This document shows positions 840 to 55,973 of a stretch of 64,000 bases of DNA, piece after piece. How positions within the stretch are numbered: the first letter of the stretch is position 1; every line of letters begins with the position of its first letter. The DNA comes from Candidatus Woesearchaeota archaeon. GTDB lineage: Archaea; Nanobdellota; Nanobdellia; SCGC-AAA011-G17; GW2011-AR18. The stretch is from NCBI GenBank assembly GCA_964430545.1, contig CAYSFG010000033.1, positions 6,394 to 70,393 on the forward strand, in the 5' to 3' direction. The notes beneath the pieces were generated by a model, which was not told the origin of the DNA, did no database searches, and worked only from the letters and a program-made list of their open reading frames with translations. A program made the position numbers and the translations under genes.

Positions 840-1484
840 ATGGGAAGAAAGAAGAAAAAATCTACAAAAATTGAAGAAGTTATAATTAAGGAAAATATTG
901 TTCATGAACTTCCTAAAGAAGAATCTTCTGTTGAAGTCAAGGATGTTTTAAATGAAACTACTGAAACGGTTGAAGTATATTTGGAAAGAGAAATTGTTAT
1001 TTCTGATAGTACAAATTTGACTAGAGAATTATATGATAAAACTAGATACGGTGAGCCTACAGAAAATAAAAAATTTCAATATTCTTTGATTGAAGGATTA
1101 TATTTATTAGAAAGGGGAAAATTTAAAATAAAATCTGGTAATAAAACTTTAGATTTTGATTCTTATATTAAAAAAGCAAGAAAAATAGAACCAAATTTTT
1201 GGGTGAGATATTGTGTATTTAAGGATTTAAGAAAACGTGGTTATATTGTTAAAACTGCTTTAAAATTTGGTGCTGATTTTAGAGTTTATGATAGAGGTGT
1301 TAAGCCTGGTGAAGATCATGCAAGATGGATTGTTTATCCTGTATCAGAGGGAGAACAACTTGGGTGGTATGAATTCTCTGCTAAAAATAGAGTAGCACAT
1401 TCAACAAGGAAAAGATTATTAGTTGCTTGTGCAGATGTAGAATGTCAAATAACATATTGGGAAATAAGGTGGATTAGACCTTAA
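840..1484 (+). CDS. endA: tRNA-splicing endonuclease catalytic subunit (EndA family) with an N-terminal extension of about 60 aa
   Basis: C-terminal core FWVRYCVFKDLRKRGYIVKTALKFGADFRVYDRG...HARWIVYPV matches the EndA catalytic domain. Confidence 0.8.
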   Translation: MGRKKKKSTKIEEVIIKENIVHELPKEESSVEVKDVLNETTETVEVYLEREIVISDSTNLTRELYDKTRYGEPTENKKFQYSLIEGLYLLERGKFKIKSGNKTLDFDSYIKKARKIEPNFWVRYCVFKDLRKRGYIVKTALKFGADFRVYDRGVKPGEDHARWIVYPVSEGEQLGWYEFSAKNRVAHSTRKRLLVACADVECQITYWEIRWIRP

Positions 1485-7740: not shown

Positions 7741-8038
7741 TAATAATATTTATTTAATCTGATTAATTAAACTTTTGTTTTTAATATCATTCTATTTTTG
7801 TAATATTTTAAAAAATTTTCAATAAAGATTTATAAATAATAAAATAAATTAAATAAAAATGATAAAAAAGATAGAAATTTAAAAATTTATGAAGAATATT
7901 AGTTTTAAAAATAGCAAACATTCAACAAAATATTTTATATATAAGAAATTTGGTTATTTTCAAATTAATATTACATCAAAATAAAGAGAAGGTATATTAA
8001 ATAATAAATTAGATATAATAAAATTTGAAAAATAAAAT

Positions 8039-8148
8039 GCCATACCCAAGATTTGAACTTGGAACAACAGCCTGACTCACTAAGGTGGATATGAGAGTTA
8101 CACCCTAATTTCTTAAGTCTGTGCTCTGCCAGGTTGAGCTAGTATGGC
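8039..8148 (-). tRNA. Intron-containing tRNA (110 nt) with an intron of about 37 nt in the anticodon arm; isotype unresolved
   Basis: Minus strand: acceptor GCCATAC/GTATGGC (7 bp), D arm GCTC-AACCTGGCA-GAGC, T arm CCAAG-TTCAAAT-CTTGG, discriminator A. The anticodon stem CAGAC only pairs with GGCTG on the far side of a 37-nt insert, with one A-G mismatch. The unspliced loop reads TTAAGAA. Confidence 0.7.
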
Positions 8149-9732: not shown

Positions 9733-9818
9733 TGGACTTGTCGGGATTTTCGAAATTTTGTCGAACCCGAAGTTTCATCGACGCCAACGATGTGTATTAA
9801 CCATTCTACTACAAGCCC
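9733..9818 (-). tRNA. tRNA-Ala (anticodon GGC) with a 13-nt insertion in the T-loop
   Basis: Minus strand GGGCTTG TA GTAG AATGGTTAA TAC A CATCG TTGGCGT CGATG AAACT TCGGG [TTCGA CAAAATTTCGAAA AT] CCCGA CAAGTCC A. The G3:U70 wobble is the alanine identity pair and the anticodon loop is TTGGCGT. The T stem TCGGG/CCCGA encloses 20 nt instead of 7. Confidence 0.75.
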
Positions 9819-11705: not shown

Positions 11706-13247
11706 TTACACTTTTTCAATTTTAGTTTCTATGAATTTACCAAAATATTTTAATTCCTTTTCTTCAGAAACTATTTTAGTTATTATCTCTTTTAAATCTT
11801 TTATTTTAATTCTTATTTGTTTCATATTGTCTCTATCTCTCAATGTTATATCTTCCTGATTTATACTTTCAAAATCTACTGTAATGCATAATTTTGTTCC
11901 AACTTCATCTTGTCTTCTATATCTTTTTCCTATACTTGCTGAATCATCATAAAAAACATTAAATCCTTCTTTAAATAAGTCTTTAAATATATTTTCTGAA
12001 ATTTCTGGTAGTTTATCTTTATTTACTAATGGAAAAACAGCAACATCAATAGGTGATAGATGTGATGGAAAGTTAAATAATGTTCTTTCTTTTTCTTCTT
12101 TATAAAATGCATCTAGTAATGCCCATATGTTTCTGTCTACTCCAAAACTTAATTCTAAAATATGTGGTATGAATTTTTTTACTTTTTCATTTTCATCTAT
12201 TGTCACTTCCAATTTTACTCCAGAACCTAATTGGTGTCCTCCTAGATCATGGTTTGTTCTATAATGAACACCACCTATCTCTTTGAACCCGCCTAATGTT
12301 TCTAAATTTAATTCTACATCAAAATGTATTTTATTATAAAAAGCTCTTTCTTCTGCTTTTAGTTCTCTAAATCTAAATATATTTTCAGGTATTTTTATTT
12401 TTTCTAAATAAAACTTCTGTACCATTGCCATGTGATAGATATAAAATTTTGGAAATTTTAGTTTTTCATTCATTTCTTTGCATGTTATTTTTTTTATCTT
12501 CTTATCTGAATAAATAATTAAATTATAATCTTTTATTTTATTGTAATCTTGGTGCTCGTTTATTTTTTCTGGATCAAAGAATATTTGTATTTCTGCTTGA
12601 ACAAATTCTCTTAATCTAAAAAATCCTTGTCTCGGACTTATTTCGTTTCTATAAACTCTTCCAATTTCAGCCAATCCTAAGGGTAATTTTCTTCTTGTTG
12701 CTTCGAACTCTCTTTTAAATGCTAAAAAAGGATTTTGCGCAGATTCAGGACGCAGCATCATCAAATCATCTCCTGTTGCTCCTACTTTTATATCAAACAT
12801 CATATTAAAAAAACGAACATCCATTAAGTTTCCTTTACAATTAGGACATTTCAATTTATTATCTTTTATTAATTTTGTTAATGCTTCTTCTTTTAATCCT
12901 CCAACATCTAATTTAGTTTCATCTTCTAATATTTGATCTGCCCTGAATCTAAAATGGCATTTTTGACATTCTGTCATTGGATCAGTAAAATTTTTTAAGT
13001 GCCCTGAACTTTCAAATACTTTTTTTGGCATTATAGTACAATCATCTATTTCATAAAAATTAGAATTTAATCCTAAAAAATATTTTCTCCATAAGTTTTC
13101 CCATTTGTGTTTAATTTTAGTCCCTAGACTACCATATGTCCAGAATCCTGCTTTGCCTCCATAAATTTCAGCACTAGGATAGATTAAACCACGTTTAGTT
13201 GCAATATCTATTATTTTTTCATATCTTGATTTTTCCTTATTTTCCAT
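11706..13247 (-). CDS. glyS: Glycyl-tRNA synthetase (archaeal/eukaryotic dimeric type)
   Basis: N-terminus KRGLIYPSAEIYGGKAGFWTYGSLG, class II aaRS core and anticodon-binding C-terminus. 513 aa. Confidence 0.9.
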   Translation of the reverse strand: MENKEKSRYEKIIDIATKRGLIYPSAEIYGGKAGFWTYGSLGTKIKHKWENLWRKYFLGLNSNFYEIDDCTIMPKKVFESSGHLKNFTDPMTECQKCHFRFRADQILEDETKLDVGGLKEEALTKLIKDNKLKCPNCKGNLMDVRFFNMMFDIKVGATGDDLMMLRPESAQNPFLAFKREFEATRRKLPLGLAEIGRVYRNEISPRQGFFRLREFVQAEIQIFFDPEKINEHQDYNKIKDYNLIIYSDKKIKKITCKEMNEKLKFPKFYIYHMAMVQKFYLEKIKIPENIFRFRELKAEERAFYNKIHFDVELNLETLGGFKEIGGVHYRTNHDLGGHQLGSGVKLEVTIDENEKVKKFIPHILELSFGVDRNIWALLDAFYKEEKERTLFNFPSHLSPIDVAVFPLVNKDKLPEISENIFKDLFKEGFNVFYDDSASIGKRYRRQDEVGTKLCITVDFESINQEDITLRDRDNMKQIRIKIKDLKEIITKIVSEEKELKYFGKFIETKIEKV

Positions 13248-17652: not shown

Positions 17653-17803
17653 TTTTAGACCTATTTAACGTGGAGTTTAGGGGGATTTATAAAGTTATCT
17701 GGTCTTATATCGAGAATAAATTAAGTTTATTTATTAAATAATTAAAAAAAGAATAAGGTTACAGGAATTAAAATTAGGTGTTTTTAGATTTAAAATAAAA
17801 ATA

Positions 17804-17850
17804 TGAGGCTGCCCGGATTTGAACCGGGATCTCAAGGTCCCAAACCTCGG
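17804..17850 (-). tRNA. tRNA-Pro(UGG)-like 3' half (position 26 through 3' end) with no 5' half nearby; split-tRNA half or tRNA fragment
   Basis: Minus strand C CGAGG TTTGGGA CCTTG AGAT CCCGG TTCAAAT CCGGG CAGCCTC A is a perfect anticodon arm (anticodon TGG) plus T arm plus 3' acceptor strand. The complementary 5' acceptor GAGGCTG and a D arm are absent within about 400 nt on either side. Confidence 0.5.
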
Positions 17851-18197
17851 GTTCTAACCAAGTTATACTACAAATACAGTTCAAAGGCCAAAACCTATTG
17901 AATCCCCATTATATTAACTTGGGCCCAAATTATTGGATTATGAAGACTTAATAAAGTTTACTTTATGTAACTTATTTCATCAATAAACCTATTTACTCAA
18001 TTCATTTTAATTGTAAATCTAATATCTATTGTATGTTTGTTATCTTTATTTCTTCTTCTGAGGATTATTTAATTTAGTATTATAATTTTTTTTGATTTCA
18101 TTTTCTAATATTAATTATTAGGTTTATAAAATTCTATTGTGTAGTTGGTAAGATCATTTAATAATATAAGATATATTAATTTTAAAAAATGTTAAAT

Positions 18198-18794
18198 TTA
18201 TTTTATTTTTTTATTTAATATTTCTTCAGTAATATCATCCCAAGAATAAACTCTTTTAATATTTTTAGGTAAGTCATTTTCTTGATTCCAGGTATAGTCT
18301 AATAATAATATTTTTTCAACTTCAGATGCACAATCTATCGCATTTTCAATAGAATCTTCTATCATAATTTCTATATCTAAACATTTACACACTTCTGATT
18401 TTTTATTGCTAATTCCATTTAAACTAGATTGATTTGTTAAATATAATCCAGAAAATTTATTCCAATAATGTTTTTCTATCCATTTTGCTGTATTTTCATG
18501 CAATTTATTAGGTCTTGAACTTATTAGATATAATTCATCACCATTTTCTTTTAATTTTTTTACACCTTCTTGTGCCCCTTTTAATGGCTTAATATTATTA
18601 TTAAACTTGTTAGTTTTATAAAATTTTTCTAGTCTATTTAATTCTTCTTCTTTCGAACACTTCCAGAATTTTCTAAGTCCATAAGAATTTATTTCTTCTA
18701 CCCTTAAGTTAATATTATACAATGAATTTGTATATTCTAATAATGGGGTTATAAATTCTGCTAGTACATCATCAATATCTATTCCTATTTTCAT
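18198..18794 (-). CDS. HAD-like 5'(3')-deoxyribonucleotidase family protein
   Basis: MKIGIDIDDVLAEF (the DxD motif I of NT5C-type nucleotidases). Confidence 0.55.
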   Translation of the reverse strand: MKIGIDIDDVLAEFITPLLEYTNSLYNINLRVEEINSYGLRKFWKCSKEEELNRLEKFYKTNKFNNNIKPLKGAQEGVKKLKENGDELYLISSRPNKLHENTAKWIEKHYWNKFSGLYLTNQSSLNGISNKKSEVCKCLDIEIMIEDSIENAIDCASEVEKILLLDYTWNQENDLPKNIKRVYSWDDITEEILNKKIK

Positions 18795-18878
18795 TAAAAA
18801 TAAAATTTTAGTTGCTTAATTTAAATATTTGTATAGTCTAACATAAACTTTATATACAATACAAAATAATTAAATTGC

Positions 18879-19715
18879 ATGTTTAAAAAATATGGTATAA
18901 TAGGTATTATCTTAATTTTTTTAGTCGAATTAAATTTCTTTTTTAAAATACAACCTTTTGCAAATTTTTATTTTCCAATTGTGTGGCTAGGTTATATTTT
19001 AATTTTAGATGCTTTAGTTTACAAACTCAGGGGAAACTCCTTAATTAGTAATAGATTTTTACAATTTATTGGTATGTTTTTTTTGTCTATTTTTATATGG
19101 TGGATATTTGAATTTTTTAATTTTTCAGTAAATAATTGGGTTTATGTCCATACTTCTGAAATGTCTGAATATGCTTCTTTATTTATGAAAATTCTTGCTT
19201 ATTCTACTGTTCTTCCTGCTTTTTTTGAGACTGTAGAATTAATAAGGTCTATTCATTTATTTGATAAAAAAGTTTTACATAAAAAACATAAGATTACTAA
19301 AAAATTTTTATATGTTATGGTTATTTTAGGTATAACATCATTTATAGTGCCATTATTTATTCCAAAATTTTCTTATCCATTGATTTGGTTAAGTTTTTTC
19401 TTTATCTTAGATCCTATAAATTATTTACATAAACAACCTAGTATCATAAGCCATCTTAGGGATAAAAAATTAGTTATTCCATTATCATTATTATTAGCTG
19501 GTATTATTATGGGATTTTTTTGGGAATTCTGGAATTATTGGGCTGTAAGAAAGTGGGTTTATGATATTCCATTTTTAAGTTTTTTTAAGATATTTGAAAT
19601 GCCTATTTTAGGTTATTTAGGTTATTTTCCATTTGCTTTTGAATTATATGCTATGTACTGGTTTTTAAGAAGTTTAATTATTCACAAAGAACATTTATTA
19701 ATTGACAATAAATAG
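18879..19715 (+). CDS. Polytopic membrane protein, hypothetical
   Basis: Seven or more hydrophobic segments rich in aromatic residues. Confidence 0.45.
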   Translation: MFKKYGIIGIILIFLVELNFFFKIQPFANFYFPIVWLGYILILDALVYKLRGNSLISNRFLQFIGMFFLSIFIWWIFEFFNFSVNNWVYVHTSEMSEYASLFMKILAYSTVLPAFFETVELIRSIHLFDKKVLHKKHKITKKFLYVMVILGITSFIVPLFIPKFSYPLIWLSFFFILDPINYLHKQPSIISHLRDKKLVIPLSLLLAGIIMGFFWEFWNYWAVRKWVYDIPFLSFFKIFEMPILGYLGYFPFAFELYAMYWFLRSLIIHKEHLLIDNK

Positions 19716-19746
19716 CTTTAAAAATTTTTAGTTTATTATTATTTTT

Positions 19747-20235
19747 ATGAAAGAACCAGAAATTGAAGTTTATGCAAAGGCTTTTATTTTATATCAGGAA
19801 AATTTATTCCTTATAAAATTAATTAATAATACATGGGTCCCTATTGGTGGGCATGTTGTAAAAAAAAATAATCTTGGAAAATTAATTGTAAATAAAGATT
19901 CTGAAATTTTTATTAAAGATAAGATATTAGGTTCAAGTGCTGATACAGAATTTAATTTATTTAATTATAATGGAATCCCTATTATATCACATCCGCCAGC
20001 TTATTTATCAAAAAGTGGAAATTATCATTTTGATTTAATTTATTATGGTTTATTTAACAAAGAACCTATATTAAATCATTCTAATATTGAAATTTTTAGT
20101 ATGCTTGAATTAAAAGCTATGGAAAAAAAAGGATTAATCAATAATAACATTATTAATTTTTATAATAAATGTTTAGATTTATCAAGAGAAAATATTAAGT
20201 CAGATATAGAAAAAAATAAATTAATTCTATGTTAA
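19747..20235 (+). CDS. Hypothetical protein
   Basis: ORF only. Confidence 0.3.
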   Translation: MKEPEIEVYAKAFILYQENLFLIKLINNTWVPIGGHVVKKNNLGKLIVNKDSEIFIKDKILGSSADTEFNLFNYNGIPIISHPPAYLSKSGNYHFDLIYYGLFNKEPILNHSNIEIFSMLELKAMEKKGLINNNIINFYNKCLDLSRENIKSDIEKNKLILC

Positions 20236-34807: not shown

Positions 34808-35527
34808 ATGCAAATAAAAAATAATTTTATTCAGTTTAGATTAGTCAAGGAAGATAAAGAATATATTTATATTAAAGGAACTAGTGGTCCTGCTAAAGAA
34901 GTTAGAATATCCAAACATTTAACACCCGAACTTTATTTTTTAGCAGGAATAATTCTTGGCGATGGACATTTAGACAAAGATATAAAAAGAATTACATTAG
35001 AATTAACTGACAGAGAAAAATTAGAAAAGATTGCTACAATTTTTGAATTAGTATTTTCTTATACAAAAATAAAAATTGCAATTAGAACTGATAAAAGGGA
35101 AAATAGAAAAATAAGATTTTATTTTAATATAAATAATTCGCCAATATACCATTTATTCAACACTATCTTTGGAATACCTAAAGGAAAGAAAAGTGATATA
35201 ATAAAAGTGTCAAAATTTATTAAACAATCAAATTTAAAATTCAGAAAATATTTTCTTCTTGGAGTTTTTATAACAGACGGGGGGCGAAGACAAGGGGGTT
35301 TTGGTTTATCTACAGCTAGCAAAATATTTAGAGAAGATATATCTGAACTACTTTTTTCAATAGGAATTATACATTCAAAAGATAGTTGGATAAACAAAAA
35401 GTATAAAAAACCTTATTATGGTCTATCTTTTAGAAAAAAACAAATATACAATATGCAGGGGTACCAAAGTGGTCAAATGGGCCAGATTCTAGATTCTTTA
35501 TATGAGAAACTAGAAGGCTTAGCTTAG
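34808..35527 (+). CDS. LAGLIDADG-family homing endonuclease-like protein; its 3' end overlaps the 5' exon of the downstream tRNA
   Basis: Two LAGLIDADG motifs, FLAGIILGDGHL and LLGVFITDGGR. The ORF continues about 73 nt into the tRNA starting at 35455, so its true C-terminus is uncertain. Confidence 0.65.
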   Translation: MQIKNNFIQFRLVKEDKEYIYIKGTSGPAKEVRISKHLTPELYFLAGIILGDGHLDKDIKRITLELTDREKLEKIATIFELVFSYTKIKIAIRTDKRENRKIRFYFNINNSPIYHLFNTIFGIPKGKKSDIIKVSKFIKQSNLKFRKYFLLGVFITDGGRRQGGFGLSTASKIFREDISELLFSIGIIHSKDSWINKKYKKPYYGLSFRKKQIYNMQGYQSGQMGQILDSLYEKLEGLA

Positions 35528-35618
35528 GAAATCCTTAGGTGTTATGGGTGATTTTACACTACGATTTTATGACACCTGGTGGCTTAGGCCTTCGCAGGTT
35601 CGAATCCTGTCCCCTGCA
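35455..35618 (+). tRNA. Class II tRNA (Leu-like) carrying an intron of about 80 nt; anticodon unresolved
   Basis: Acceptor GCAGGGG/CCCCTGC (perfect), 3-bp D stem CCA/TGG with Leu-type D loop AAGTGGTCAAA, 3' anticodon strand CCTGG, 14-nt variable arm TGGCTTAGGCCTTC, T arm GCAGG-TTCGAAT-CCTGT, discriminator A. 164 nt against an expected 85. Confidence 0.65.
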
Positions 35619-45992: not shown

Positions 45993-46457
45993 ATGGAAAA
46001 TGAATTTAAAAAAATTAAAAATTTATTAGATAATAATAAAATTATATATGAAATAAAAGAACATGAACCAGTTTTTACAAGTGAGCAAGCTGCAAAAGTT
46101 AGGGGTATAGAATTAAAGTCAGGTGCAAAATCAATGATAGTTAAAAGTGAAGGGAAATTTTATAATCTTATAATAAGTGCAGCTAAAAAAATAGATTTTA
46201 ATAAAATTAAAAAAATATTAAATAAAAAAAGTGTTAGTCTTGCAACTCCAGAAGAAGTTTTAAAAAATACAGGTTGTGAAATTGGCAGTGTTCCTCCTTT
46301 TGGTAATTTATTTAATTTAACTATTTATTGTGATCCTTCATTATTAGAAAATGAATATATAGACTTTAATGCTGGCTTGCATAATTTATCAATTAGAATG
46401 AAATCTAAAGATTGGGTTGTAATAGTTAATCCAATAATTATAGATTTTAGTAAATAA
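45993..46457 (+). CDS. YbaK/ProX-type aminoacyl-tRNA deacylase
   Basis: ATPEEVLKNTGCEIGSVPPFG and the overall YbaK block pattern. Confidence 0.7.
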   Translation: MENEFKKIKNLLDNNKIIYEIKEHEPVFTSEQAAKVRGIELKSGAKSMIVKSEGKFYNLIISAAKKIDFNKIKKILNKKSVSLATPEEVLKNTGCEIGSVPPFGNLFNLTIYCDPSLLENEYIDFNAGLHNLSIRMKSKDWVVIVNPIIIDFSK

Positions 46458-48406: not shown

Positions 48407-49570
48407 CTATAATATTTTTATAGTCTCTTTAAACATTTCATTCATCTCATCTGTTTTAATAACGAGGATTTTTACTTTGCTATCTTTATTTTGTATATAT
48501 CCTTCTTCTTTAAATTTTTCATTCTTATTTTCATCAATTATTATTCCCAAGTTATCTAATTCTTTAAGTATTTTTTCTCTAATAACAATAGAATTGTAAC
48601 CTATTGCTCCTGTGAATATTATTAAATCTAATCCATTCATTGCAGCAATATAACTTCCTATATATTTTTTTATTCTATATGAAAATAAATCCAGTGCAAT
48701 CTTAACTTTATGATTTTTCTTTTCTAACTTTAATAGTTCTCTTACATCATCACTTTCCCCAAGTCCATAAAATCCGCATTCTTTGTTTAGATATTCTTCT
48801 AATTTTTCATAATCTAATTTTAGTTTTTTTCCTAAATATAATAAGGCGCCTGCGTCTATATCTCCTATTCTTGTTGAACCAAATATTCCTTCTAATGGTG
48901 TGTATCCCATGCTTGTATCAAAACTTTTTTGTTCTTTTATTGCAGTTATGCTAGACCCGCCCCCTAAATGGCATATTATTATTTTATCAGGTATTTCTTC
49001 AAATGAGCTTTTTAGTTTATTTAATATTGAGCTTATTGATATTCCATGATATCCATATTTATAAAGTTCTAATTTTTCTGCAATTTTATTGTTTATAGCA
49101 TACAATTTTGCAGTTTCTTGTTTTGTTTTATGAAATGCACTATCAGATATTCCTATAAATTTTACTTTAGGAAGTAATTTTTGTAAATTTATTAATTCAA
49201 TTAATGTTGGCTTTATGTGTAATTGGGCTGATTCACTTACTTCTCTTAATTTTTCTAAATAAATTTTATCTATTATTTTATTTTCTAAAAAATATAAACC
49301 AGGTGCTACTATTCTTATTCCTATTCCACTTAATCCATTATCTATTAAGTTTTTATTTATTAAATATTTTATTAAATATTTTGCAGAGTTTTCATAATCA
49401 TTTTTATTTATTTTTTTCTTTTCTTTTTTATCATTAAATTCTATATTAACTAAAAATTCTTTTCCAAATTTTTCAAAATTAGCTTTTAATATTAATTTAT
49501 GATTATACAAACTATACTTCTTTGAAGCACTCCCTACATTTACTATTAAATATTTTTTTTCCATTGCCAT
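48407..49570 (-). CDS. ackA: Acetate kinase
   Basis: N-terminal KYLIVNVGSASKKYSLY (ASKHA phosphate-1 motif). 387 aa. Overlaps and is co-oriented with phosphoketolase. Confidence 0.75.
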   Translation of the reverse strand: MAMEKKYLIVNVGSASKKYSLYNHKLILKANFEKFGKEFLVNIEFNDKKEKKKINKNDYENSAKYLIKYLINKNLIDNGLSGIGIRIVAPGLYFLENKIIDKIYLEKLREVSESAQLHIKPTLIELINLQKLLPKVKFIGISDSAFHKTKQETAKLYAINNKIAEKLELYKYGYHGISISSILNKLKSSFEEIPDKIIICHLGGGSSITAIKEQKSFDTSMGYTPLEGIFGSTRIGDIDAGALLYLGKKLKLDYEKLEEYLNKECGFYGLGESDDVRELLKLEKKNHKVKIALDLFSYRIKKYIGSYIAAMNGLDLIIFTGAIGYNSIVIREKILKELDNLGIIIDENKNEKFKEEGYIQNKDSKVKILVIKTDEMNEMFKETIKIL

Positions 49571-51864
49571 TTTTCTATTTCGTCAGGATCTATTCCATAT
49601 TCTTTTATATATTCAGAATGTTCTTTTAATTTTTTTTCATATTTTTTTATTATTTTTTGTGTTTTATATTTTTTAATTACATTATTTTTTTCTAATAACA
49701 TTAATGCTTCTATTAATAAATGATACCTGCTTGTTTTGTTTCTTACATGCATATCAAATGGTGTTGTTGTTGATCCGTTTTCTATATATCCATGTACTTT
49801 AAATCTTTCTGGATTTTTATGGTCACAAAGAATCGCTTTTATGTCATTCGGATATCCATGATAGTTGAATATGACTGGTTTGTCTTTTGTGAAGTAATTT
49901 TCAAAATCATTCAACGGTATTCTGCATGTTTCATTTCCTATTCCTATTGAAGATAGTTCCATAATATTAACAAATCTTATTTTTATTTCAGGAATTTCAT
50001 TTTTTAATATATCTATTGCAGCTAAACATTCTTTTGTCAAGTAATCCCCTATCCCAACAAATACTATTTCTGGATTTTTATCACTAGCAAATTCCCATAT
50101 ACTTAATCCCGTCTGTAATTCTTTTTCTGCTTTTTCAATAGTTAACCATCTTGGCTCTACTGTTTTTCCTGCAACTATTATGTTTATTCCATTTTTTGAT
50201 TCCAAACATTTTTTTAATACAACTAAAGTAGAACTTCCATCTGCAGGAAAATATACTTTAGATAAACAATTTGTTCTTTCAAGCATTCCACTTATGAATT
50301 TTGGATTTTGATGAGAAAAACCATTATGTTCTTGTCTCCATCCTGATGATGTTAATATATAATTTAATGATGAAACATCTCCTCTCCATGATGTCTCGCC
50401 AGCTATTTTTAAAAATTTTTCATATTGGTCTGCCATGCTACTAACTATTTCTATAAAAGCTTCATAAGATGCAAATACACAATGTCTTCCTGTTAATATA
50501 TATCCTTGTGATAGTCCTTGTAGTGTATGTTCACTTAACATTTCTATTACTCTTCCATTTCTTCCGATATCTTTATCCCATTCTTTTATTGGCCAAACAA
50601 ATGATCTTTTTGTGGTTTTGAATATTTTATCTAATTTATTTGAGTAAGTCTCATCTGGTGACATTAATCTAAAATTGTTTTTATTTAATTTAAAAACTTC
50701 ATTTAAATATGCTCCGACTCTTCTCATACTTGATGATCCTATTGTTCCTGGTTTTGTTGAGTCTTCCTCAAATTTTTTTATATTTGGTAATTTTAATTCT
50801 TTATAATTTTTCCATCCTAAAGCATGTTTATTTAGTCCCATTGGTAATTTAGGTATTATTTCTTTTATTTCTTCTATAAAGCCATTATTAAATAATTGAT
50901 TAAAATTATAACTTCCAAACCATTTTTCAACAGCTTCAAGTTCTTTTAAATTTGTTTTTGCTTCTTTTGCTATTACTTGATGTGATAAACAATTACCTTC
51001 TAGTTTTTCTCCATTTAATGTTTTTATTCCAGTCCATCCTTTTTGCGTTCTTAATATTATCATGGGAAATCTTGGTGATAGTATTCCATTTTTTGATTGT
51101 ATTTTTTTTATTTTTATATAACATTCTTCTAATTCATCAATCATTTTTTCATAAATATTTGGTTCTTCCACTATTATGGGGTCATATCCGTATCCATAGA
51201 ATAATGATTTTAATTCTTTGTTTGACATTCTTCCTAATATTGTAGGTCCTGAAATTTTATATCCATTTAAATGTAATATTGGTAGAACTGCGCCATTTGT
51301 TTTTGGATCTATGAATTTGTTTATATGCCATGCTGTTGCTGTTGCTCCTGTTTCTGCTTCTCCATCACCTATTAAACATGCGACTATTAATTCTGGATTA
51401 TCTAATATTGCACCATATGCTGTGGATAATGAATATCCTAATTCTCCTCCCTCTACTATTACTCCTGGTGCTCCTGGATTGCTGTGGCTCGGAAATCCAT
51501 ATGGCCAACTAAAGTTTTTTGCAATATATTCTATTCCTTGTTTTGTATGTGTTGCTTCTTTGTAGAATTTTCCTAAACTTCCTTCTAAAAATAGATTTGA
51601 TTGTAATGCAGGAAATCCATGTCCTGGCCCCAATACAAACATCATATTTAATTCATGTTTTTTAATTAAATAATTTAAATTTGCATATACAAAATTGATT
51701 CCAGGACATGTTCCCCAATGTCCTAACAATCTTGGTTTTATATCTTCAAAGTTTAATTTTTTTTCTAGAAAGAAATTATTTTTTAAATATATCTGTATCG
51801 CTGATAAGTAATTTACTGCTCTTACATATTTTTTTATTGATTCTACAGCCTCTTTTTTATTCAT
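49546..51864 (-). CDS. xfp: Xylulose-5-phosphate/fructose-6-phosphate phosphoketolase (XFP, TPP-dependent)
   Basis: Phosphoketolase signature LLGHWGTCPG near the N-terminus, TPP-binding GDGE block. 772 aa. Confidence 0.9.
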   Translation of the reverse strand: MNKKEAVESIKKYVRAVNYLSAIQIYLKNNFFLEKKLNFEDIKPRLLGHWGTCPGINFVYANLNYLIKKHELNMMFVLGPGHGFPALQSNLFLEGSLGKFYKEATHTKQGIEYIAKNFSWPYGFPSHSNPGAPGVIVEGGELGYSLSTAYGAILDNPELIVACLIGDGEAETGATATAWHINKFIDPKTNGAVLPILHLNGYKISGPTILGRMSNKELKSLFYGYGYDPIIVEEPNIYEKMIDELEECYIKIKKIQSKNGILSPRFPMIILRTQKGWTGIKTLNGEKLEGNCLSHQVIAKEAKTNLKELEAVEKWFGSYNFNQLFNNGFIEEIKEIIPKLPMGLNKHALGWKNYKELKLPNIKKFEEDSTKPGTIGSSSMRRVGAYLNEVFKLNKNNFRLMSPDETYSNKLDKIFKTTKRSFVWPIKEWDKDIGRNGRVIEMLSEHTLQGLSQGYILTGRHCVFASYEAFIEIVSSMADQYEKFLKIAGETSWRGDVSSLNYILTSSGWRQEHNGFSHQNPKFISGMLERTNCLSKVYFPADGSSTLVVLKKCLESKNGINIIVAGKTVEPRWLTIEKAEKELQTGLSIWEFASDKNPEIVFVGIGDYLTKECLAAIDILKNEIPEIKIRFVNIMELSSIGIGNETCRIPLNDFENYFTKDKPVIFNYHGYPNDIKAILCDHKNPERFKVHGYIENGSTTTPFDMHVRNKTSRYHLLIEALMLLEKNNVIKKYKTQKIIKKYEKKLKEHSEYIKEYGIDPDEIEKWQWKKNI

Positions 51865-51903: not shown

Positions 51904-52263
51904 CTATGTAAATCTTGTCTGTAATTTTTTACTATAACTTAATGGATGATCTGTTACTAAGGTTATTGCAGTCATATAAGGTTCAAGCTCTTTGTACATA
52001 TTATCATAACTTTTTTGTCCTTTTTTTGTTAATACTAAACTTTTTTTTTCATATTTTATTAATTTATTTTCTTCTAAAAATTCTAAATTCTTGTATAATG
52101 CTCTATCTTGTTTTTTTACTATATCAGCGTTTTTTGCTATATCAATAAATTGCGCTTTAGATATTGTTATTGTTAAGTTTTTATCTTGTATCTTTTTATT
52201 TGCTTCTCTATACCAGAATCCTAATGCGAATAATATAAATTTGTGTGTTTGACTTAGTAGCAT
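51904..52263 (-). CDS. Hypothetical protein, possibly a wHTH regulator
   Basis: ORF only, directly upstream of xfp. Confidence 0.3.
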   Translation of the reverse strand: MLLSQTHKFILFALGFWYREANKKIQDKNLTITISKAQFIDIAKNADIVKKQDRALYKNLEFLEENKLIKYEKKSLVLTKKGQKSYDNMYKELEPYMTAITLVTDHPLSYSKKLQTRFT

Positions 52264-52305
52264 TGCTTTATTTTTTGATTTATTAGAAGATAAATGTTTG
52301 CTATT

Positions 52306-52854
52306 TTAATTATCTAATTCATAATTAATAATTGTTATACAATCTGCTGCCAAATAAACTGTGTTTCCTAAAGATATTTTCTTTCCATATCTTAATACAA
52401 ATCCTTCTTCTTTTTTTGGTAAACCTACTTGGTCTCCTATTACAAATACCGAATTTTCTTTAAATTTAATTTTACTAATTACTTCTCCTTTTTCTTCTAA
52501 TACATAAATTTCATTCTCTTTAGATAATTCTTTTATTATTTCTTGAAAACTTTTTTTTTCTAAACTAAATCCTTTATGTTCTTTTCCTGATAAAACATTT
52601 TTTATTATATCACCTATTGTTATTTCATCACATCTTAGATCATAAACTATTTTACCATCTATTCTCATATATAATGGGGGTTTAGGAGGCCCATTTAATA
52701 TAATGTGAAATATTACATCTCTTCTTAGTGCATGTGATTTAAAAAAACTAGAAACTATGCAATGTGCTACTATATCCAATCTTCCTGCTTCTCTCAGATT
52801 TTTAAAATTTCCTGTTGTATATCCTTGTCTTGAAAATAGTATAAAGTGTTTCAT
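52306..52854 (-). CDS. trmY: tRNA (pseudouridine54-N1)-methyltransferase TrmY (COG1901/DUF358, SPOUT fold)
   Basis: MKHFILFSRQGYTTGNFKNLREAGRLDIVAHCIVSSFFKSHALRRDVIFHIILNG matches the TrmY N-terminal block. Confidence 0.7.
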   Translation of the reverse strand: MKHFILFSRQGYTTGNFKNLREAGRLDIVAHCIVSSFFKSHALRRDVIFHIILNGPPKPPLYMRIDGKIVYDLRCDEITIGDIIKNVLSGKEHKGFSLEKKSFQEIIKELSKENEIYVLEEKGEVISKIKFKENSVFVIGDQVGLPKKEEGFVLRYGKKISLGNTVYLAADCITIINYELDN

Positions 52855-53136: not shown

Positions 53137-53221
53137 AGCCCCTGGTGGAAATTGAATCCACAACCTCTTCCTCATTAGCATAAGTTACCAAGGAAGGACT
53201 CCACCATTAAGCTACAGGGGC
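53137..53221 (-). tRNA. tRNA-Thr (anticodon GGU) with a 13-nt canonical anticodon-loop intron
   Basis: Minus strand GCCCCTG TA GCTT AATGGTG GAGT C CTTCC TTGGTA [ACTTATGCTAATG] A GGAAG AGGTT GTGGA TTCAATT TCCAC CAGGGGC T. Confidence 0.75.
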
Positions 53222-55599: not shown

Positions 55600-55723
55600 A
55601 TTTATTCAAGCAAGAAGTTGAACAAAACCAATTATTATTTTTATCAATGCCTTTACCTTTCTCTTGTTTCATGCTACATATTGGGTCAGTTTTTTTAAAT
55701 CCAAACATTTTAACAGCCTCCAA
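55541..55723 (-). CDS. YHS/TRASH-domain metal-binding protein
   Basis: DPICSMKQEKG...WFCSTSCLNKY matches the YHS block DPVCGM...FCS..C. C-terminal CCH. Confidence 0.5.
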   Translation of the reverse strand: MEAVKMFGFKKTDPICSMKQEKGKGIDKNNNWFCSTSCLNKYEKQMQHNTTKKNHKSCCH

Positions 55724-55973
55724 CCATTCCTGTTGATTGTGGTGCAGTACTACCGCCTAATTTTGTAGGTATTGTTCCATGGTGTTCATACATCATTTTT
55801 TCGTTTGCAGTCCATCCAGTTGTATCAAGATTCTTCCCAGCTGAAGCTGTTGCTACTTCAATTACTAAACCTATTTCACTTTTTAGTGAATTTATCTGAA
55901 AAGACTGAAATACTAAAAACAATAATATTCCCCCAATCATTATTAAATTAAGATATTCTATATATTTTTTCAT
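55710..55973 (-). CDS. Small membrane-anchored hypothetical protein
   Basis: N-terminal TM plus a His-containing tail MMYEHHG. Confidence 0.3.
   Translation of the reverse strand: MKKYIEYLNLIMIGGILLFLVFQSFQINSLKSEIGLVIEVATASAGKNLDTTGWTANEKMMYEHHGTIPTKLGGSTAPQSTGMVGGC

Follow-up and report, generated by a model that had tools for sequence, protein, structure and literature searches.

The window analysed here, a 64,000-nt stretch of DNA from an AT-rich (25.6% GC), Woesearchaeota-like DPANN archaeon, carries on its minus strand a tRNA gene whose contiguous acceptor stem is broken. Positions 17850-17804 (minus strand) read CCGAGG-UUUGGGA-CCUUG-AGAU-CCCGG-UUCAAAU-CCGGG-CAGCCUC-A, and both sequence reading and Rfam agree with an earlier, sequence-only reading of this DNA that the segment comprises an anticodon arm with UGG, a variable region of 4 nt, a T arm (CCCGG-UUCAAAU-CCGGG), the 3' acceptor strand CAGCCUC and the discriminator A. 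The anticodon UGG, for proline, lies at 17840-17842 (minus strand; sequence reading, Rfam and ARAGORN). The same reading had reported no D arm within about 400 nt on either side, but the D arm UAGUAUAACUUGGUUAGAAC directly adjoins the segment at its 5' end (17868-17851, minus strand), where Rfam aligns it as UA-GUAU-AACUUGGUUA-GAAC within a full-length match to RF00005 (model positions 1-71 on 17804-17877, minus strand; 36.5 bits, gathering score 29). Contiguous with the D arm, acceptor positions 5-7 are also in place as UUG (17873-17871, minus strand). The Rfam alignment is non-standard only at three acceptor pairs (2-71, 3-70 and 4-69) and at a single pair of the D stem. With GUAUUUG as the contiguous 5' strand, positions 2-4 stay unpaired against CAGCCUC and 4 of the 7 acceptor pairs form. 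The gene is therefore disrupted, as had been proposed, and the accompanying claim of a missing 5' acceptor strand holds for positions 2-4 of the contiguous strand; it does not hold for positions 5-7, which are present, nor for GGGG, which is found 30 nt upstream. CCA is not encoded, as TAT comes after A73. Just 3' of the tRNA end, a T-rich stretch, TTTTTATTTT (17792-17801, minus strand; sequence reading), is a probable archaeal terminator.

[quoted passage not shown] Exactly one solution was found in the 200 nt, consisting of a 4-nt exon 1, GGGG (tRNA positions 1-4; 17907-17904), a 30-nt intron, AUUCAAUAGGUUUUGGCCUUUGAACUGUAU, between tRNA positions 4 and 5 (17903-17874), and exon 2, which holds tRNA positions 5-73 from acceptor positions 5-7 to the discriminator A (17873-17804), all on the minus strand. 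In the precursor, the leader and exon 1 (UAUAAUGGGG) are followed by this intron and then by exon 2 (UUGUAGUAUAAC). The splice motif (17869-17913, minus strand) has the strict hBHBh' form, with helices on both flanks of the BHB. Its outer helix of 4 bp pairs UAUA (17913-17910) with UGUA (17872-17869), and its central helix of 4 bp pairs AUGG (17909-17906) with CUGU (17879-17876) as A-U, U·G, G·U and G-C, two of the four being G·U pairs. Two 3-nt bulges stand on opposite strands, GG/A on the 5' side (17905-17903) and AU/U on the 3' side (17875-17873), the slash marking the junction after the second nucleotide of each. The inner helix of 5 bp pairs UUCAA (17902-17898) with UUGAA (17884-17880), and it is capped by an apical stem, AGGU/GCCU, in the hairpin AGGU-UUUG-GCCU.

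When the upstream 200 nt were shuffled 20,000 times with dinucleotides preserved, a central helix of any kind together with a restored acceptor arose 301 times, and flanking helices of at least 2 bp were also present in 15 cases, while none of the 20,000 reached the observed flanking helices of 4 and 5 bp. Thermodynamics alone does not favor the BHB register, since the explicit BHB structure has an energy of -28.1 kcal/mol compared to -39.4 kcal/mol for the MFE fold, which prefers a slightly different, neighboring register. When hard constraints were placed on the BHB in ViennaRNA, the central helix was not kept.

Removal of the intron changes the acceptor stem from 4 to 7 of 7 pairs, as GGGGUUG pairs with CAGCCUC throughout (G1-C72, G2·U71, G3-C70 and G4-C69 for the four nucleotides of exon 1). 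The junctions are fixed by this pairing because a one-base shift at either would break pair 4-69 or 5-68. The mature D stem retains an A12·A23 mismatch. ARAGORN recognizes the spliced 74-mer of exon 1 and exon 2, GGGGUUGUAGUAUAACUUGGUUAGAACCCGAGGUUUGGGACCUUGAGAUCCCGGUUCAAAUCCGGGCAGCCUCA, as tRNA-Pro(tgg) and reports no tRNA in either the unspliced 74-mer or the precursor. Taken from its sequence, the locus is thus very probably a complete, cis-encoded tRNA-Pro(UGG) gene with a 30-nt non-canonical BHB intron at position 4/5 of the acceptor stem. An interruption of the acceptor stem after the fourth nucleotide is a rare but known kind of disruption, one that is overlooked by standard tRNA finders, and involves no new mechanism. 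The analysis covered 64 kb of the genome, and a second, intact tRNA-Pro(UGG) gene may lie elsewhere in it.

We scanned a genome collection with the 22-mer at the 3' end of the gene, GGTTCAAATCCGGGCAGCCTCA, which returned 27 loci. All of these are archaeal, and their labels are mostly Woesearchaeota, Nanoarchaeia, Nanoarchaeota or 'uncultured Methanosarcinales'. At most of the loci the gene is uninterrupted and starts with GGGGCUG, GAGGCUG or GGGGUUG. The 5' end of the spliced window gene, GGGGTTGTAG..TAACTTGGTTAGA, matches that of intronless orthologues (GGGGTTGTGGGTTAACTTGGTTAGA), and two intronless Woesearchaeota genes (L012 and L015), which start with GGGGTTGT, read GGGGTTGTGGGTTAACTTGGTTAGAC, almost the spliced window sequence. 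In an 11-row alignment of the spliced and unspliced window gene with nine relatives, mean column identity was 90%. Further, tblastn with the proteins encoded next to the window gene revealed a conserved gene order, SecE-Spt5-L11-tRNAPro-L37ae-RpoP-prefoldin β-UPF0147. The window has the same order with three genes (18198-20235) added between L11 and the tRNA, and this conserved block identifies the window gene as the positional orthologue of ordinary tRNA-Pro genes. The three added genes are an NT5C-like nucleotidase, a 5'-nucleotidase homologue, on the minus strand and two ORFs of 278 and 162 aa without a Pfam match on the plus strand. At the same spot in other relatives, L11 and the tRNA are adjacent in some, L043 has a His_Phos_1 gene, and L038 and L041 have small ORFs.

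Further homologues were collected from contigs encoding an L37ae protein 82-85% identical to that of the window; two of these contigs (L040 and L042) have no tRNA-Pro upstream and one (L044) is cut off. Three of the genes found in this way have an intron at exactly 4/5. One of them, L035 (GCA_016179945.1), whose L37ae protein NCBI lists under Candidatus Woesearchaeota archaeon, has a second intron at 37/38, L036 has the 4/5 intron only, and L041 has a second intron in the T arm at about 53/54. The L004/L030 genes of Nanoarchaeia have an analogous intron at 3/4 and a second one in the D loop. The tRNA-Pro genes of L037 and L039 are intronless, and those of L038 and L043 have an intact acceptor together with introns in the D loop and at 37/38. 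This varied intron content among orthologous tRNA-Pro(UGG) genes suggests that introns turn over quickly at this one locus. From metagenomes, a DNA-pattern scan brought up no relatives other than intronless ones and a copy of L004.

The same BHB search, run with each gene's own 3' strand, gave a single solution in each of the five acceptor-intron genes (window, L035, L036, L041 and L004). The acceptor introns of the other four are 27-31 nt long, and the 5' bulge is GG/A in 5 of 5 genes. We aligned the five precursors with MAFFT and scored four helices, in which 94.3% of cells are paired and 7 pairs have changed on both sides; among the 4/5-intron genes, for instance, the central helix is AUGG/CUGU, UUGG/CCAA or AUGG/CUAU. 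When partners were slid by 1-3 columns as a control, the paired fraction fell to 23-44% (at most 43.8%), and the observed covariation score was not matched in any of 500 shuffles. Because the five homologues are related, they share some of this pairing by descent. The covariation is independent of the window sequence that prompted the model and, coming from five related sequences, is supportive of the predicted fold rather than a formal proof of it.

Upstream of exon 1 lies the sole TATA-like box of the locus, TTTATTAA (17948-17955, minus strand), a putative promoter element identified by sequence reading. Between this box and exon 1 we place a predicted 5' leader, GGGCCCAAGUUAAUAUAAU (17908-17926, minus strand), whose extent is based on the MFE fold, a leader motif and the pairing across the five genes. 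Three parts of this leader take part in pairing: CCAAGUUA (17922-17915), which is antisense to the D-loop sequence UAACUUGG (17865-17858); UAUA (17913-17910), which supplies the outer BHB helix with its 5' strand; and AU (17909-17908), with which the central helix starts. In the MFE fold, the leader pairs with the D loop and the resulting helix is stacked below the outer BHB helix. This leader/D-loop helix is 95% paired across the five acceptor-intron genes. A leader motif, CCARGUU, occurs in 5 of 5 acceptor-intron genes compared to 0 of 13 orthologues with an intact acceptor; it takes the form CCAAGUU(A), or CCAGGUUAA in L004, sits 12-25 nt upstream of G1 and complements the D-loop sequence AACUUGG. 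Where the acceptor is intact, most orthologues have 19-30 nt between the TATA-like box and G1. The distance is longer in the acceptor-intron genes, at 40 nt in the window gene and in L004 and 47-51 nt in the rest. This spacing fits a transcript that would start approximately 15-25 nt earlier and so supply the leader.

EndA cleavage in the bulges of a BHB followed by exon ligation by an RtcB-type ligase is the standard route of archaeal tRNA splicing. We propose that transcription would start downstream of the TATA-like box and give the pre-tRNA about 17-19 nt of leader. This leader, antisense to the D loop and to exon-2 positions 6-9, would fold back on exon 2. Together with the intron hairpin, this fold would present GGGG and both splice sites in a helix-bulge-helix-bulge-helix arrangement that can be read in the sequence and is supported by the covariation. 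EndA would then cleave each of the 3-nt bulges, following G4 in one and preceding U5 in the other; the exons would be joined by an RtcB-type ligase, and the acceptor stem GGGGUUG/CAGCCUC would form only after joining. The central helix of the BHB uses leader nucleotides -2 and -1 along with G1 and G2. Given that the acceptor stem cannot form before ligation and that the central helix draws on the leader, splicing should precede leader removal, 3' trimming and CCA addition. The window itself encodes a tRNA splicing endonuclease of 214 aa (840-1484, plus strand), identified by the two Pfam domains PF01974 (1.2e-26) and PF02778 (8.4e-14), which are its N- and C-terminal domains, and by NCBIfam TIGR00324 endA (103.9 bits, cut-off 59.6). 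Its best solved relatives are the catalytic subunit of Nanoarchaeum equitans (3IEY_A, 6.8e-34) and the Methanocaldococcus jannaschii enzyme (1A79), and judged by this homology it is the enzyme expected to cut the tRNA-Pro BHB. The protein has about 45 extra N-terminal residues relative to the M. jannaschii enzyme and, in a phmmer alignment, does not have the short insertion found next to the catalytic His of the N. equitans catalytic subunit. A Pfam scan of most ORFs in the window turned up no RtcB ligase or RNase P component.

The sequence-only reading had instead interpreted the locus as a free-standing 3' half of a split tRNA gene, to be joined in trans to a separate 5' piece encoded elsewhere, as in N. 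equitans. The inability of the contiguous GUAUUUG to pair at positions 2-4 is in keeping with this, as is the host lineage, DPANN, where split tRNAs were first found (PMC4033280). The motif GAGGCTG, which had been reported as absent from the window, is also present twice elsewhere in it, at 51846-51852 and 55714-55720 (both minus strand). However, both sites are in protein-coding contexts, one at the start of the phosphoketolase ORF (49546-51864) and the other at the end of an ORF without a Pfam match (55710-55973), and we rejected the GAGGCTG/GRGGYTG sites elsewhere in the window as 5' pieces acting in trans on account of their ORF contexts. All but 4 nt of the tRNA are contiguous. The remaining 4 nt are found on the same strand, 30 nt further upstream, within a strict cis BHB, and a single promoter-like TATA box precedes them. 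A separate promoter would not fit in the 30-nt intron, and the same cis arrangement occurs in four homologous genes. Within the window, the upstream sequence has its pairing partners in exon 2 and in the intron, and not in the trailer of a 5' piece. What had been described as a single GC-rich leader at 17880-17926 is not one element, as it is made up of the leader (17926-17908), the exon GGGG (17907-17904) and most of the intron (17903-17874). The stretch would nonetheless take part in BHB-type processing by the same enzymology that joins split tRNAs, as had been suggested. With the first exon in cis, joining in trans is exceedingly improbable. A tRNA with a very large intron had been named as an alternative, and the class of element was right, but the intron is 30 nt long and lies in the acceptor stem, not between halves.

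It also had to be considered whether the locus is a decayed pseudo-tRNA or an integrase attachment-site remnant with a BHB-like fold upstream by coincidence. Three genes are inserted between L11 and the tRNA compared to some relatives, the D stem has one mismatch, and AT-rich DNA gives many weak BHB-like matches (25 in a 225-nt stretch). Yet the window holds a single copy of the 3' 22-mer, the nucleotidase homologue and the two Pfam-less ORFs that were inserted include no integrase, integrase domains are likewise missing from the neighboring ORFs, and the insertion is on the 5' side of the tRNA whereas att duplications arise at the 3' end. The gene sits in the syntenic place of an orthologous functional gene with an intact acceptor, and the combined BHB and acceptor solution, which chance falls far short of explaining, is conserved in four further lineages with compensatory changes. 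We therefore regard decay or an att origin as highly improbable. An intron with boundaries or a mechanism other than the strict BHB is very unlikely too. Exon 1 could then be GGGC (17926-17923), which the MFE fold pairs with GCCU of the 3' acceptor strand, or AGG (17896-17894), which joined to UUG would pair at positions 2-7 by sequence reading. Both had been picked out by eye as exon-1 candidates, as GGGC+UG and as AGG+UUG with a 20-nt intron, and both were rejected: each leaves a U1·C72 mismatch, orthologues start with G1, and neither puts the splice sites in BHB bulges, so that both fail the BHB search. Neither is kept in L035, L036, L041 and L004, whereas the GGGG solution (GGG in L004) is. 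The tRNA-Pro gene with a strict BHB intron at 4/5 is the reading that we retain.

Interruption is not limited to tRNA-Pro in this genome region. All five tRNA genes found in the window are interrupted, and of the four besides tRNA-Pro, three are interrupted at non-canonical sites. The tRNA-Thr(GGU) gene (53137-53221) has a 13-nt canonical intron with a BHB. A tRNA gene with a CAU anticodon (8038-8148, minus strand) has one intron at 29/30 (8098-8118, 21 nt, strict BHB) and one at 37/38 (8074-8089, 16 nt); it is absent from both whole-window Rfam scans, scores 41.4 bits in a local scan, and is called Met by ARAGORN after splicing and misread as Leu(tag) by ARAGORN -i. The class II tRNA-Leu(UAG) gene (35455-35618, plus strand) has two introns, one at 30/31 (35486-35521) in a strict BHB whose inner helix is 6 bp long and one at 37/38 (35529-35573) whose central helix contains one U·U mismatch, and is 83 nt long when spliced. 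We considered an amber CUA anticodon for this gene and rejected it as an artefact of the unspliced reading (UCU if spliced once), as removal of both introns gives Leu(UAG); TAG is an ordinary stop codon in the window. The tRNA-Ala(GGC) gene (9733-9818, minus strand; Rfam 27.6 bits, under the gathering score) has an insert of 12-13 nt in the T loop, UUCGA-CAAAAUUUCGAA-AAU, with ambiguous splice sites, and a clean BHB was looked for at this insert and not found. Run on the whole window, ARAGORN finds no tRNA by default and three with the intron option; these do not include tRNA-Pro and two of them are misread.

Several protein genes of the window were also noted. An ORF with a LAGLIDADG_3 homing-endonuclease domain (34808-35527, plus strand) ends inside the tRNA-Leu gene, over its exon 1 and first intron, and a LAGLIDADG gene is also found near L37ae in L042. 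Other genes encode a protein with a YbaK/ProX-like aminoacyl-tRNA editing domain (45993-46457, plus strand), the pseudouridine-54 N1-methyltransferase TrmY (52306-52854, minus strand), which adjoins tRNA-Thr, and glycyl-tRNA synthetase (11706-13247, minus strand). At 51904-52305 and 49546-51864 (minus strand), a frame of 134 codons ends in TAG, beyond which the same frame continues over 785 codons. This arrangement resembles a pair of neighboring genes, one for an HTH protein and one for a phosphoketolase with its own ATG, and not readthrough.

Non-canonical BHB introns in archaeal tRNA genes have been described before, and those at position 3/4 of the acceptor stem in Thermoproteales are termed 'an extreme case' (Sugahara et al. 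2008, as cited in PMC4090602). Like these, the window intron is a short, protein-spliced, BHB-bounded intron inside the acceptor stem, its exon 1 is only a few nucleotides long so that the BHB is built with the 5' leader, and other introns occur in the same genome. Unlike these, it is at position 4/5 (3/4 in the homologue L004), and its host is an AT-rich DPANN archaeon and not a hyperthermophilic crenarchaeon. On the side of the genes studied here we further note a feature of the family itself, a conserved leader of 7-10 nt antisense to the D loop. What is new here is a 4/5 intron in a DPANN tRNA-Pro, and the kind of intron is already known. A second comparison is with the split tRNA genes of N. 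equitans and the tri-split tRNAs of Caldivirga maquilingensis (PMC4033280, PMC4390854). As in both of these, a flank that is not part of the tRNA pairs into a helix beside the BHB so that EndA and a ligase join the pieces, and the host shares the DPANN lineage with N. equitans. In contrast to split tRNAs, both pieces are on one transcript, 30 nt apart, so a second locus is not needed, and the helper helix is formed by the 5' leader and exon 2 and not by the trailer and leader of two transcripts.

Kaneta et al. 2018 reported that tRNA gene disruption is raised in DPANN archaea, including Pacearchaeota and Woesearchaeota, and linked it to EndA variants, and incomplete predicted tRNA sets in DPANN were taken to point to unidentified disrupted tRNA genes (PMC5829648). 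The window tRNA-Pro fits this case, in that ARAGORN misses it and Rfam, with a low score, misplaces its 5' end. tRNAscan-SE 2.0 lengthens candidates by 60 nt to catch introns near the ends (PMC8450103). For annotation, a 4-nt exon behind an acceptor-stem intron is one route to a 'missing' or 'half' tRNA-Pro in DPANN genomes, whose tRNA sets are frequently described as incomplete.

Finally, we put forward, tentatively and as a possibility that we hold to be somewhat doubtful, that the antisense leader is a dedicated cis-acting splint which holds the micro-exon of 3-4 nt in a long helix for EndA. If so, splicing would be forced before any 5'-end maturation, and the position of the promoter about 15-25 nt further upstream in acceptor-intron genes would be explained. 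These genes would then be a living intermediate between intron-containing and split tRNA genes, as cutting the DNA of the 30-nt intron in two would give a Nanoarchaeum-style pair. Under the same condition, the mosaic of intron positions (none, 4/5, 3/4, D loop, 37/38 and T arm) would record very rapid gain, loss and sliding of introns in Woesearchaeota. Acceptor-stem introns mark the far end of the range of tRNA gene disruption in archaea, and a family with clear covariation and a conserved antisense leader offers a defined substrate for studying how DPANN EndA recognizes a BHB outside the tRNA body and for asking in which order splicing and end-processing take place. The conserved antisense leader and the intron-position mosaic among orthologues are what most merit specialist attention.
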